Shown piece by piece: positions 13,012 through 22,511 of a stretch of DNA of 44,058 nt. The position numbers and the translations under genes are program-made. Origin of the DNA: Promethearchaeota archaeon (GTDB taxonomy: Archaea > Asgardarchaeota > Lokiarchaeia > Sigyniarchaeales > SOKP01); the NCBI GenBank assembly GCA_048938445.1, contig JBHLME010000020.1, positions 1 to 44,058 on the forward strand, written 5' to 3'. A model generated the notes under the pieces. That model worked only from the letters and a program-made list of their open reading frames with translations. It ran no database searches and had not been told where the DNA came from. The stretch's first letter is position 1; each line of letters begins with the position of its first letter.

Positions 13012-13899
13012 TTAAGAAATAAATCCACTACTTCTTAAACCTCTTGTAAGCCATTCCAATTGTAATTCTAATCCCCCCAAGTGCTCTTTTGTAAAAATTT
13101 TAGAATTTGGAATGAAAGTATCGAAATATTGTGAAGCAATATAATTCATCGAAGAATCTTCATTATACCATTTGATTATTGCATATTTTGTTTGAAAATG
13201 TAGGTCTTCCATTTCATTTAGTATTCTATCGCATTCTTCACCCGCCCAGACACCATAATGCGCTAAAGAAATAGAATCATATTTATCGCGTAATTCTCTC
13301 AATTTTTGAAATGACTTAAGAACTTCTGGTTCATAAAAATCGGATGGCATAAAAGTAGGTTGAAAGGTATCATAATCGAGTCTATCAATTACAGTGTCTC
13401 CAACAAAAATGTTTTTATTTTTGGAATCTAAGAGAGCAATTGAATCCATGGTATGTCCAAAGAAATTCAGAACTTCTAATTTTAAACCGTTTAAATCAAT
13501 AATATCACCTTCTTTTAATGGGGTTACATCAAGCACGGGATCAACTCTAGTATCAAATAAACTATTTATTTTATCTGGATTTTTTAAATTATCAATTGCT
13601 TTTTCAGAAGCTAAGAATTCAACATCAATATCTTTCATTGCTTTCTTTATCTTTTCTGCTCCCTGGAAATGGTCCCAATGACTATGTGTAAAAAAAATTT
13701 TATGAATCGGAAAAATATTCAATTCTTGTAACTTTTTTATAATCTTTCTTGCAGAATACCCCGCAGAAGTGTCAATCATCATTCTAAGACCGTCATTTTC
13801 AATCACGTAGACAGACATTGTTCCATTCAATCCAAACAATAACCCATCAATAAGATAAGTATTATCGTTAAATTTTCCATCAGAATTTATGAAAACCAT
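13012..13899 (-). CDS. Metallo-beta-lactamase-fold hydrolase (paralog 1)
   Basis: THSHWDH, GHT, FVGD, AHYG. Confidence 0.92.
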   Translation of the reverse strand: MVFINSDGKFNDNTYLIDGLLFGLNGTMSVYVIENDGLRMMIDTSAGYSARKIIKKLQELNIFPIHKIFFTHSHWDHFQGAEKIKKAMKDIDVEFLASEKAIDNLKNPDKINSLFDTRVDPVLDVTPLKEGDIIDLNGLKLEVLNFFGHTMDSIALLDSKNKNIFVGDTVIDRLDYDTFQPTFMPSDFYEPEVLKSFQKLRELRDKYDSISLAHYGVWAGEECDRILNEMEDLHFQTKYAIIKWYNEDSSMNYIASQYFDTFIPNSKIFTKEHLGGLELQLEWLTRGLRSSGFIS

Positions 13900-14045: not shown

Positions 14046-14933
14046 TTAAGAAATAAATCCACTTGCCTTTAAGCCATAAATGAGCCACTTTAATTGCATT
14101 TGCAATCCTTTCAAGTTATCTCTTCTATAATTTCTAGAATTTGGGATAAATTTATCATAGTATTTTGAAGCAATATATTCCACAGAAGGATTTTCCTCAT
14201 ACCATTTAATTATCGAATCTTTTGTTTTAAAATGTAGGTCTTCCATCTCATCTAATATTCGATCGCAATCCTCATCCATCCAGACTCCATAATGAGCTAA
14301 TGAAATAGAGTTAATCTTTTCTCTCATATCCCTTAATTTTTGAAATGTTTTTAAGATCTCAGCTTCATTAAAATCTGTTGGCATAAATGTGGGTTGAAAA
14401 GTTTCATAATTCACTCTGTCTATAATAGCATCTCCTACGAAAATATTTTTATTCTTAGAATCAAAAATCGCAATTGAATCCATTGTATGGCCAAAAAAAT
14501 TTAACACTTCTAAATTTAGACCATTTAAATCAATGATATCTCCTTCTTTTAAAGAGGTAACATCTTCAACGGGATCAACAGTATGTTCAAACGCCGAATT
14601 AATTCTATCAGGATTATGTAAATTGGGTATAGCCTTTTCAGACGCCAGAACTTCAATATCGGTTTCTTTCATTAAATTTTTTAATAGATTTACACCTTGA
14701 ATGTGATCCATATGAGAATGTGTTAATAGAATCTTATTTATGGGAAATAAGTTCAATTCTTTTAATTTTTTGACGATTATATTAGTTGCATTGTCTGATG
14801 CTGTATCAATTAACATTCGCATCCCATTATTCTCAATTACATACATAGAATAAAGTTTTTCTATTCTAAATAACAATCCATCAATAAGATAAGAATTATC
14901 ATTAAATTTACCTTCTGAATATATGAAAACCAT
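14046..14933 (-). CDS. Metallo-beta-lactamase-fold hydrolase (paralog 2)
   Basis: THSHMDH, GHT, FVGD, AHYG; same 295-aa length as its neighbour. Confidence 0.92.
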   Translation of the reverse strand: MVFIYSEGKFNDNSYLIDGLLFRIEKLYSMYVIENNGMRMLIDTASDNATNIIVKKLKELNLFPINKILLTHSHMDHIQGVNLLKNLMKETDIEVLASEKAIPNLHNPDRINSAFEHTVDPVEDVTSLKEGDIIDLNGLNLEVLNFFGHTMDSIAIFDSKNKNIFVGDAIIDRVNYETFQPTFMPTDFNEAEILKTFQKLRDMREKINSISLAHYGVWMDEDCDRILDEMEDLHFKTKDSIIKWYEENPSVEYIASKYYDKFIPNSRNYRRDNLKGLQMQLKWLIYGLKASGFIS

Positions 14934-15066: not shown

Positions 15067-15082
15067 ACAAAAAATTTAAAAT
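15067..15082 (+). promoter_or_regulatory. Putative BRE/TATA promoter for the leader-cimA transcript
   Basis: A-rich ACAAAAAA followed by TTTAAAA (15075-15081), about 26-32 nt upstream of ATG 15107, consistent with a leaderless start. Confidence 0.45.
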
Positions 15083-15106
15083 GTTTGAAACCAATGTATA
15101 ATTAAT

Positions 15107-15175
15107 ATGAAACAAAAAATAATTCCAAGCATATGTATTATAGCTAGTATCATTATTGGGATTATTATTATTTAA
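15107..15175 (+). CDS. Putative Ile-rich leader peptide MKQKIIPSICIIASIIIGIIII
   Basis: ATG..TAA, 22 codons, 12 Ile (8 ATT, 3 ATA, 1 ATC), no Leu/Val/Phe; immediately upstream of cimA. Confidence 0.7.
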   Translation: MKQKIIPSICIIASIIIGIIII

Positions 15176-15182
15176 TTTCATA

Positions 15183-15244
15183 AAAGAAATTTTAAACTCT
15201 TTTAACCTTTCTTTTCTTAACGTTTCTGGGTTTAAAATTTCTTT
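15183..15244 (+). promoter_or_regulatory. Long hairpin between the leader ORF and cimA (candidate attenuator structure)
   Basis: AAAGAAATTTTAAAC (15183-15197) and GTTTAAAATTTCTTT (15230-15244) form a perfect 15-bp inverted repeat, plus U.G and C-G pairs; 28-nt pyrimidine-rich loop. Confidence 0.7.
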
Positions 15245-15284
15245 GTTCAAGATAAAATAAAAACAGTGGAGTGTGAGAAAAGTA

Positions 15285-16883
15285 ATGGCCGAAAAAAAAG
15301 TGTATATTTATGATGCAACCTTGAGAGAGGGTAGTCAGAAAACGGGAATTTCGTTTTCAATGGAGGATAAATTTAGAATTATTGAAAGACTGATTCAAGA
15401 CCTTCACATCCCAATGATTGAGGCAGGATGGCCAGGATCAAATCCTAAAGATATTGATCTCTTTCAAAAAATTAAAGAAGTAGGACTGAATGGAACGAAT
15501 ATTTACGCTTTTGGGTCAACTCGTCGTAAAGACAGTTGTGCAGAAGATGATCCTAGTATTCAAGCAATCATTGATGCGGAAGTAAAAGGAGCAACTATTT
15601 TTGGGAAATCATGGGATTTACACGTTGAAACTGCCTTAGAAACTACACTTGAAGAGAATTTACTAATGATTCAAGATACAATTGAATGTTTAAAAAACAA
15701 TAAAATTGAGGTAATTTATGATGCTGAACATTTTTTTGATGGATATAAGAATAATAAAGAATACACACTGAAATGTATAGAAACGGCTAAAAACGCTGGA
15801 GCCTCTTGGATAACTTTATGCGATACAATTGGAGGAATTTTACCTCATGAACTAAAACCAATCATTTCTGAAGTAAAAAGCTGCGTTGGTAATGTCCCTT
15901 TAGGAATCCATGCTCATAATGATTCTGGAATGGCAAATGCAATTGCTCTTGAAGCTTATCTTCAAGGTGTCGAAATGATCCAAGGAACATTAAATGGATT
16001 TGGGGAAAGATGTGGAAATACTGATCTAACAACAATCTTACCAGTATTAAAATTAAAAATGAATGTTGATTGCATAAGTGATCATGATTTACAAAATTTA
16101 ACAGAAGTCTCTCACTTCATTTATGAAATGGCAAATTTACCTGGAGCACCGGACCAACCATTTGTAGGAAAAAATGCATTTTCTCATAAAGCCGGCATGC
16201 ATATTTCTGCAATGTTAAAGAATTTACGAACATATGAACACATAAATCCTGATGTAGTTGGTAATACTCGAGATATAAAAGTATCGGAATTGGCGGGGAA
16301 GAGCTCAGTCCTACACATGGCAGAGAAGTTCAAGCTTCCTTTAACAGCTGACAATCCAAAAGTAAAAGCCATTCTTGATGTGTTGAAGGAGAAAGAGAAT
16401 CAAGGATATTCTTTTGAAGGTGCTGAAGGTTCTTTAGAGATTTTGATGCGTAGTATGGACATGAGTATTCAAGATCCAAATTATTACAGGAATAAGTTTT
16501 TTAACTTAGAGGGTTTTAGGGTTTTAACTGAAATGTACAAGGATACATTGTTATCAGAAGCTACAATTAAAGTAAAAGTAGGAAATGACCATTTTCATAC
16601 TGCAGCTGAAGGAAATGGTCCTGTAAATGCTTTAGATAATGCTCTTAAGAAAGCTTTAGTGTACTTTTACCCTAGTATAAAAGAAATCGATTTATCTGAT
16701 TTTAAAGTTAGAATTATCAATCAAGCGGGTACTGCATCAGTCGTGAGAGTATTAGCAGAAACTCATGATAATGAGGGAGCATGGGGCACGATTGGAGCTC
16801 ATGAAAACATTATTGTTGCTTCTTGGGATGCTTTAGTAGATTCATATGTTTACAAGTTATTGAAGAATAAAGCAAATTGGTAA
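15285..16883 (+). CDS. cimA: Citramalate synthase (LeuA/CimA family); alternative GTG start at 15273
   Basis: YDATLREGSQ, EAGWPGSNPKD, IFGKSWDLHV, YDAEHFFDG, HAHND, GERCGN and a C-terminal regulatory domain (GNGPVNALD); signature of the bacterial-type CimA clade. Confidence 0.88.
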   Translation: MAEKKVYIYDATLREGSQKTGISFSMEDKFRIIERLIQDLHIPMIEAGWPGSNPKDIDLFQKIKEVGLNGTNIYAFGSTRRKDSCAEDDPSIQAIIDAEVKGATIFGKSWDLHVETALETTLEENLLMIQDTIECLKNNKIEVIYDAEHFFDGYKNNKEYTLKCIETAKNAGASWITLCDTIGGILPHELKPIISEVKSCVGNVPLGIHAHNDSGMANAIALEAYLQGVEMIQGTLNGFGERCGNTDLTTILPVLKLKMNVDCISDHDLQNLTEVSHFIYEMANLPGAPDQPFVGKNAFSHKAGMHISAMLKNLRTYEHINPDVVGNTRDIKVSELAGKSSVLHMAEKFKLPLTADNPKVKAILDVLKEKENQGYSFEGAEGSLEILMRSMDMSIQDPNYYRNKFFNLEGFRVLTEMYKDTLLSEATIKVKVGNDHFHTAAEGNGPVNALDNALKKALVYFYPSIKEIDLSDFKVRIINQAGTASVVRVLAETHDNEGAWGTIGAHENIIVASWDALVDSYVYKLLKNKANW

Positions 16884-21938: not shown

Positions 21939-22511
21939 ATGAAAAGGACTGCTGAGGTTTCAAGAAAAACAGCTGAAACGGATATTACGATTAAATTGAA
22001 TTTAGATGGCTCTGGAAAATGTGAAATTAACACGGGATTCTCATTCATGGATCACATGTTAACATTATTAGCACGTCATTCAGGAGTAGATTTAGTCGTA
22101 AAAGCCGGTGGAGATTTGACACATCACGTTATAGAAGATATTGGAATTGTGCTAGGAGAATGCTTTGAGAAGGCTATAGGAGATAAAAAAGGAATAAATA
22201 GATATGGCACCGCATTTATTCCTATGGATGAATCTCTTGCAAGATGTACAATAGATTTTAGTGGAAGAAAAGCTTTAGCATTAGATCTTAAATTAAATGA
22301 ATGTGATATAGAGGATGTCGCTGTTGAAGATATAAAACATTTTCTAAATTCTTTTGCTGAGAATTCTAAGATAAATCTTCACTTGAACGTTTTATATGGA
22401 GAAGATCAGCACCATAAAACTGAAGCTGCTTTTAAAGCACTGGCAAGAGCTATTAAAGAATCAATTACAATTGTTTCAGATAAAATACCTTCAACTAAAG
22501 GTGTTTTGTAA
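21939..22511 (+). CDS. hisB: Imidazoleglycerol-phosphate dehydratase
   Basis: RKTAETDI, FMDHML, HHVIED, PMDESLA, HHKTEAAFKA, IPSTKGVL. Confidence 0.97.
   Translation: MKRTAEVSRKTAETDITIKLNLDGSGKCEINTGFSFMDHMLTLLARHSGVDLVVKAGGDLTHHVIEDIGIVLGECFEKAIGDKKGINRYGTAFIPMDESLARCTIDFSGRKALALDLKLNECDIEDVAVEDIKHFLNSFAENSKINLHLNVLYGEDQHHKTEAAFKALARAIKESITIVSDKIPSTKGVL

Follow-up and report, generated by a model that had tools for sequence, protein, structure and literature searches.

An Ile-rich leader ORF conserved before cimA in a family of Asgard archaea looks like a leader-peptide attenuator wired differently from the bacterial ones

The thrL, ilvL, leuL and trpL leaders of enterobacteria are the classical leader-peptide transcription attenuators, and a Met-Trp minigene has reportedly been proposed before trpY in Methanothermobacter. 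The mechanism of classical leader-peptide attenuation has been described (bioRxiv 10.1101/834739), and C. glutamicum ilvBNC has a three-hairpin attenuator (PMC11857589); here and below, citations refer to the parts of each text that were available. Archaea work without Rho and do not need hairpin terminators (PMC13675443), and the word stem 'attenuat' does not occur in the searched text of a review of the field. The archaeal factor aCPSF1 binds RNA with two U4 tracts, and U4 tracts in M. maripaludis reporters are also read by its Lokiarchaeal orthologue (PMC8716108). Upstream ORFs have been reported in Haloferax, though, in the available part of that paper, not as amino-acid sensors (PMC7261190). 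No archaeal leader-peptide attenuator was found in the open literature searched, subscription and older papers lying mostly outside its coverage.

In this study we analysed a stretch of 44,058 nucleotides from a Promethearchaeota archaeon (assembly GCA_048938445.1, contig JBHLME010000020.1), here called the window. Positions 15107..15175 (+) hold a leader ORF of 22 codons (MKQKIIPSICIIASIIIGIIII), 12 of them for Ile, with three ATA codons, four final ATT codons and neither Leu, Val nor Phe, just as the original prediction had described. The gene downstream is indeed cimA, as had been claimed: it encodes a bacterial-type citramalate synthase of 532 amino acids (15285..16883, +; TIGR00977, 674 bits against a cut-off of 450), and the two named archaeal records among its close relatives, both Promethearchaeota at 72% identity, mark the host as a Loki-type Asgard archaeon. 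The gap from the leader stop to the cimA ATG at 15285 is 109 nt, and the 110 nt given earlier is a mere counting difference. Sequence inspection placed a Shine-Dalgarno-like purine stretch of cimA at 15268..15277 (+), outside the helix P2 described below. The G+C content of the leader region is approximately 21%. The leader was compared with the intergenic ATG ORFs of 15-30 amino acids in this genome (one per stop; intergenic space was defined crudely, taking ORFs of at least 100 amino acids as genes). Its Ile fraction was the highest of 3,883; the mean was 0.13, and only three of these ORFs reached 0.5. An Ile share of I/L/V/F of at least 0.85 was found in only 3 of 3,069 hydrophobic 19-residue windows of long ORFs (mean 0.38), in line with the earlier remark that the almost entirely Ile-based hydrophobicity of the leader is unlike that of real transmembrane helices. 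The leader peptide had no match in NCBIfam. Two tandem, similar 295-aa hydrolases of the metallo-beta-lactamase fold are encoded divergently from the leader (13012-13899 and 14046-14933, -), and the one scanned falls under every family cut-off shown. Elsewhere in the window there is a hisB (21939-22511, +) without neighbouring his genes.

A cimA of this type was present in 29 of the 135 genomes of the family. The Ile leader ORF preceded it in all 27 genomes with a full upstream region, this genome included (these genomes are kin and not independent). Two loci stand outside the count, one lacking upstream DNA and one on a contig beginning inside the leader, where the remnant scored 69 bits against the leader model. 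Leader ORFs were located by their Gly-Ile motif together with an ATG in the same frame, and they follow the pattern M-(K/N/R)...I-I-P...I-I-G-I(2-4)-stop. They measure 17-24 codons, with the exception of L012, which has lost its stop and runs to 57 codons (57 aa); in L017 the stop is displaced by 9 nt. Across the 27 loci the distance between Pro and Gly, which is independent of the choice of ATG, varies among seven lengths (24-45 nt), every one a multiple of 3 (one row was corrected for a CCC run), a result partly expected from ATT-repeat slippage. The +1 frame contains 2-6 stops in all 27 leaders, and the Ile run directly adjoins the stop in every one. Residues of the family leaders comprise 283 Ile, 22 Leu, 15 Val and 7 Phe, and the Ile codons vary synonymously (ATT 206, ATA 58 and ATC 19), so that the conserved short Ile-rich ORF expected at orthologous loci was found. 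Within the hydrophobic part, 14 of the 27 leaders carry 1-3 charged residues, which argues against a membrane helix, and 13 have none after Pro. None is fused to cimA (0/27). CimA diverges to 70% identity among the leader-bearing loci, and the DNA upstream of the TATA-like element does not align. The leader is real and conserved, and it is very likely regulatory.

Class-wide, this cimA occurred in 41 of 161 genomes, 12 of them outside the family. Four of these 12 loci (L026-L028 and L030) have a longer, Shine-Dalgarno-led Ile-rich leader ending in Ile-Ile-Cys, and the Ile leader was absent at the other eight, all in other families of the class. The leaders of L026-L028 did not match the leader model; L030 had a weak match at the right place (25.5 bits, E 0.17). 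The element was sought adjacent to cimA loci and, by nhmmer, in this genome, where it is present in one copy. Among bacterial cimA loci, 5 of 77 had an Ile-rich short ORF, judged by eye on the two best candidates per locus. These candidate bacterial attenuators lie 180-300 nt upstream, in L053 and L060 (Sumerlaeota) and in L098, L099 and L101 (Thermodesulfobacteriota). In a FastTree tree of 105 proteins (midpoint root; four loci omitted as truncated or duplicate), the five bacterial leader-bearing genes were not sisters of the archaeal ones, which formed their own well-supported groups. As the root is a midpoint, no donor of cimA is claimed.

The original prediction had also suggested that the three ATA codons would sample the modified tRNA-Ile2, and this suggestion was not supported. 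ATA is under-used in the leaders (58 of 283 Ile codons, 20%, vs 34% genome-wide), and the conserved ATA sits in helix P1. ARAGORN called a tRNA-Ile with a UAU anticodon in a tRNA cluster of this genome (contig C215, 8912-8983). The TiaS domain PF08489 was detected in four archaeal controls and in none of six incomplete assemblies, this genome and five relatives (G000, G005, G009, G020, G021 and G028). The gene content suggests that the family may read AUA without agmatidine; a literature search on this point found nothing. A threonine dehydratase scored over its cut-off in this genome, so cimA is not the sole entry to Ile.

The TTTAAAA announced 26-32 nt before the ATG is there, at 15075-15081, forming with a preceding BRE-like A-run a promoter-like element at 15069..15081 (+). 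The usual archaeal distance between TATA element and transcript start predicts a leaderless or nearly leaderless transcript, beginning a few nt before the leader ATG. A TATA-like hexamer starts 30-34 nt before the ATG in 19 of the 27 homologues, vs 3-11 of 27 in seven other 5-nt windows, and this placement gives modest support to the predicted start. The genome-wide histogram of TATA-to-start distances showed just a faint rise at 27-35 nt and therefore does not calibrate the start site.

Two conserved RNA helices, which like the U-rich loop described below had escaped the original prediction, accompany the leader. P1 is a 1:2-like helix over the regulatory codons, with -10 to -19 kcal/mol in all 27 loci. 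Its outer part, P1a, pairs 15106..15112 (+), which includes the start codon, with 15176..15182 (+), a segment right after the stop that is complementary to the start codon and contains an invariant TTCA (92% of cells paired). At position -1 of P1a the 27 loci show T-A in 16, A-T in 4, C-G in 1 and no pair in 6. The inner part, P1b, pairs the Ile-Ile-Pro codons at 15118..15126 (+) with the Gly-Ile-Ile codons at 15158..15166 (+); both of its C-G pairs are kept in 27/27, and the adjacent pair is T-A in 16, T-G in 8, C-G in 1 and unpaired in 2. P2 pairs 15183..15199 (+), at the edge of the footprint of a terminating ribosome, with 15228..15244 (+), and its core (92% paired) was recovered unaided by RNAalifold. 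Eleven G-U-preserving changes in the P2 core, together with seven unpaired cells, fit an RNA made from the plus strand, and compensatory changes occur at core pairs in three sequences. Over P1a and P2, 89% of 612 cells are paired vs 33-60% when the arms are slid, with 18 two-sided changes; none of 500 shuffles matched this pairing, a control inflated by kinship. Counted from the first base of the stop, P2 starts to pair at 8-13 nt in 25 of 27 loci, despite the 2-4 Ile codons between Gly and stop. The fold of the window's own leader had a z of -1.8, and an Rfam search with E up to 10 returned two chance-level matches far under the gathering scores.

The P2 loop (15200..15227, +) is pyrimidine- and U-rich with two U4 tracts, and is a candidate aCPSF1 target. 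Across the family the loop measures 30-49 nt with a median pyrimidine fraction of 0.79, at least one U4 tract in 25 of 27 loci and at least two in 19 of 27. Two or more U4 tracts are found in 50% of the regions after convergent stops and in 24% of those before divergent starts; a pyrimidine content of 78% is reached by only 12% and 0.3% of these regions, respectively. In one genus (L009, L012, L014 and L015) the loop is only 0.53-0.66 pyrimidine, and L012 is without its stop; this is a possible case of a decaying switch, or a natural test case. A scan of the leader for an intrinsic terminator (GC-rich hairpin with U-run) found none, and a U-run behind the hairpin is not a conserved feature: only 8/27 loci have U4 within the 10 nt that follow P2.

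Equilibrium folding was carried out on 26 leaders (L012 omitted) with the ribosome footprint held unpaired; for two loci no P2 value was obtained. The median P2 probability over the 26 leaders was 0.82-0.99 when there was no ribosome or when it was stalled upstream. With the ribosome at the stop, it was 0.68 when the footprint covered +12 nt and 0.16 when it covered +15 nt; at +12 nt, P2 stayed above 0.5 in 14 of 26 leaders, and the outcome thus depends on the assumed footprint. Ribosome footprints of Haloferax span 27 nt, 12 of them 5' of the P site, and those of initiation span 16 nt (PMC7261190). The 27-nt span puts the 3' edge near the lower value, where the effect on P2 is weaker. For the window's own leader, most ribosome states show a loop-to-RBS fold in competition with P2. 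A classical 2:3 antiterminator was considered and rejected, its modelled probability being approximately zero in both equilibrium and truncated-transcript folding of the cimA leaders. Pairing of the Ile/Gly codons with the spacer after P2 gave p 0.12, and 4 of 26 leaders beat shuffles at p <0.1. By eye, part of the post-stop arm resembled the Shine-Dalgarno stretch over a short length in some loci.

Conservation, frame and codon content make it likely that the rate of leader translation reports charged tRNA-Ile and controls cimA in cis. The wiring we propose, which we rate at slightly below an even chance, is that a delayed ribosome would let P2 shield the U-tract, and that one which has reached the stop would clip P2 and thereby uncover an aCPSF1 site. 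The transcript would begin a few nt before the leader AUG, as suggested by the TATA spacing; the leader ORF would be translated, as its conserved frame and start indicate; and P1 and P2 would fold in the RNA, in keeping with the preserved pairs and a degree of covariation. With Ile in good supply, the ribosome would keep pace with RNA polymerase and stand at the stop during P2 synthesis, its footprint would occupy the outer P2 pairs and leave the U-rich segment single-stranded and untranslated, and aCPSF1/FttA would cleave the exposed U-tract and end transcription ahead of cimA. Under a shortage of Ile-tRNA, the ribosome would lag on the Ile codons, P2 would close and sequester the U-tract, and the polymerase would enter cimA. 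P1 would probably act as a pause or re-initiation gate, because it buries the AUG once the ribosome has gone. This genome encodes aCPSF1 (875 bits). P2 can shield the loop only after its 3' arm has been made, and the wiring therefore needs slow, factor-linked termination; the 30-nt loop of a closed P2 might also still bind aCPSF1.

Cognate leaders were sought at other amino-acid operons, as originally proposed, and were found at some of them. The leuA paralogue of this genome, over the NF002085 cut-off, is preceded by a Leu-rich leader (contig C157, 15972-16082, +; L122, with homologues L128-L157). Such a leader was present in 29 of 30 leuA loci of the family (the best 30 of 62), the one miss being a truncated contig. 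The last 14 codons of the leuA leaders hold 283 Leu and 6 Ile, totals that arise partly by construction since these leaders were chosen by Leu count. The Leu run adjoins the stop, and a long hairpin, variable in sequence but conserved in shape (29/30 loci), begins 0-8 nt from the stop in the 29 leaders and loses about half its energy with a ribosome there; a U4 follows this hairpin in only 6/29. A Trp-rich leader with five Trp (contig C239, 1408-1464, +; L126) precedes an ORF of approximately 90 codons and trpD-trpC-trpF, and in folding a stall-specific helix breaks its long U-loop hairpin. Before a branched-chain aminotransferase gene there is an Ala/Ile/Val-rich leader with two competing helices (contig C71, 17141-17248, -; L123). 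Val/Leu-rich leaders (L124, C117:18788-18862, -; L125, C206:14462-14563, +; L127, C141:32913-33002, +) precede an acyl-CoA dehydrogenase-ETF cluster, an acyl-CoA mutase cluster and a 45-codon ORF, and each of them, in this one genome, has behind its stop a hairpin that encloses a pyrimidine tract, as well as an alternative helix pairing that tract. An inverse logic is conceivable for the leaders before the acyl-CoA dehydrogenase and the mutase. By contrast, no Ile leader was found in the 300-450 nt examined before ilvA, an ilvB-like gene and both ileS of this genome. The two ileS genes (contigs C228 and C220) are full-length and over the TIGR00392 cut-off. A short His-rich ORF (C60:29420-29467, -), with no same-strand gene nearby, is probably due to chance. 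In the four second-family cimA leaders, which differ in sequence, a hairpin stands approximately 10 nt from the stop, and in nearly all minimum-energy folds of these and the leuA leaders a stall-specific disruptor is missing; a U-run behind the hairpin is rare in both groups. The simplest reading of the models is that the stop-edge hairpin would mark the stalled, read-through state and that a terminating ribosome would clip it. It is possible, though we rate it as somewhat less than probable, that the lineage has a genome-wide set of such leaders (Ile for cimA, Leu for leuA, Trp for trp, Ala/Val/Ile for ilvE and Val for acyl-CoA dehydrogenase/mutase), in which the stop-edge hairpin is the read-through signal, the ribosome clips it and aCPSF1, a CPSF73-family nuclease, executes.

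Part of the likelihood granted to the Ile sensor belongs to two other read-outs. One is the opposite polarity, which we consider possible but less likely: P2, with P1 after ribosome release, would be the OFF state, acting as a hairpin-assisted terminator or as a scaffold displaying the U-tract, and would fail to form when a ribosome stalls on the final Ile codons or a short-lived 2:3 helix intervenes. Such an OFF state recalls the 1:2 plus 3:4 fold of classical attenuators, the end of P2 reads UUUCU(UU), and archaeal termination can be enhanced by hairpins (PMC13675443). The Ile run adjoining the stop in 27/27, and likewise the Leu run in leuA (a ribosome translating the final codons there would cover the hairpin), also speak for it, as does the stall-specific helix that breaks the U-loop hairpin in the trp leader of this genome. 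However, cimA has no stall-specific disruptor, the 2:3 helix is at about zero and local helices reach -1 to -6 kcal/mol vs -8 to -19 for P2; with a ribosome on the last Ile, P2 keeps a median of 0.82, and the U4 that should follow the hairpin is mostly missing (present in 8/27). The other read-out is translational and more doubtful: clipping P2 would free the pyrimidine tract to pair with the cimA RBS. The loop-to-RBS fold is the minimum-energy structure of the window's sequence, and of the 26 leaders 24 show a higher cost of opening the RBS at the stop (+15) than at mid-stall (median 3.7 to 5.4 kcal/mol), but the loop and RBS of the same locus pair no better (-9.9 kcal/mol) than those of different loci (-9.8; permutation p 0.39), nor any better than shuffled loops do. 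The loop-to-RBS helix was therefore rejected as a specific feature.

The remaining explanations dispense with Ile sensing. About as doubtful as a translational read-out, if anything slightly more so, is an element that works without translation sensing, either as an internal cimA promoter in the P2 5' arm or as a protein-binding structure, the ORF being incidental. That arm contains TTTAWA in 23 of 27 loci, downstream of an A-rich stretch, and there is precedent for codon-rich leaders with unimportant codons in Streptomyces, where similar leaders of ilvB and leuA were reportedly unaffected when their regulatory codons were changed (PMC1262725). Against this, the four exceptions alter the hexamer yet keep P2 pairing, the G-U-preserving changes fit RNA rather than a DNA site, and the conserved ATG, the frame and the matching of Ile, Leu and Trp to their genes would be left unexplained. 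It is improbable that the ORF product acts as a protein, as a small peptide of the membrane or signal-like type, or that the ORF is what remains of a longer gene. The basic N-terminus, the hydrophobic tail and the 13 leaders uncharged after Pro would suit such a peptide, but the other 14 place 1-3 charges in the would-be helix, length varies, the Ile share of I/L/V/F is 0.87 in the leaders vs 0.38 in real hydrophobic segments, and there is neither a family match nor a fusion to cimA. A chance ATT microsatellite, which AT-rich intergenic DNA with the Ile background given above could supply, has a negligible probability: a leader that ranks first of 3,883 is kept in 27/27 while CimA diverges to 70% identity, and conservation effectively refutes a chance origin of the ORF. 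The translated Ile-sensing leader foreseen by the original prediction is retained as likely, on conservation (27/27), frame, synonymous variation and product matching in leuA and trp; a classical terminator/antiterminator design was not found.

If Ile sensing by the leader is true, it would be ribosome-mediated amino-acid attenuation in Archaea, in the lineage closest to eukaryotes, and transcription and translation would then have to be functionally coupled in Asgard archaea. If the wiring through aCPSF1 is also true, this relative of eukaryotic CPSF73 would gain a regulatory role in 5' leaders. The element is approximately 180 nt long and directly testable, since Lokiarchaeal aCPSF1 works in M. 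maripaludis terminator reporters (PMC8716108). Ile and Leu leaders also label function, making cimA separable from leuA paralogues.

With the classical attenuators the cimA leader shares a short ORF rich in end-product codons before the first pathway gene, a 1:2-like helix and a second helix downstream. Unlike them, it has an archaeal host, a TATA promoter and no competing antiterminator; where they have a GC-rich stem and a 3' U-run, it has an AU-rich P2 with a U-rich loop of 30-49 nt, and its hairpin begins at the edge of the ribosome at the stop. As neither an antiterminator nor an intrinsic terminator was found in folding models and scan, we do not file it as a classical attenuator. The leaderless polycysteine ORFs of mycobacteria share a C-terminal cognate run, a spacer of approximately 100 nt and the lack of a terminator/antiterminator pair, the leaderless start being a prediction here; their codon run pairs with the downstream Shine-Dalgarno sequence, whereas no specific pairing of Ile codons or loop with the RBS region was found in the cimA leader (bioRxiv 10.1101/834739). 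Actinobacterial LEU element and ilvB leaders likewise place cognate codons before a LeuA/CimA-family or ilv gene and lack the classical parts, but a pseudoknot and a stem pairing the Shine-Dalgarno sequence are theirs alone, and their reported indifference to codon changes counsels caution (PMC1262725). Archaeal aCPSF1/FttA terminators share two U4 tracts within approximately 30 nt and the presence of the aCPSF1 gene; in the available texts they are described at gene ends, whereas the cimA tract lies in a 5' leader within a conserved hairpin (PMC8716108; PMC13675443). Judged from its sequence and its relatives, the cimA leader looks like an element that functions as leader-peptide attenuators do, wired differently from the bacterial ones.
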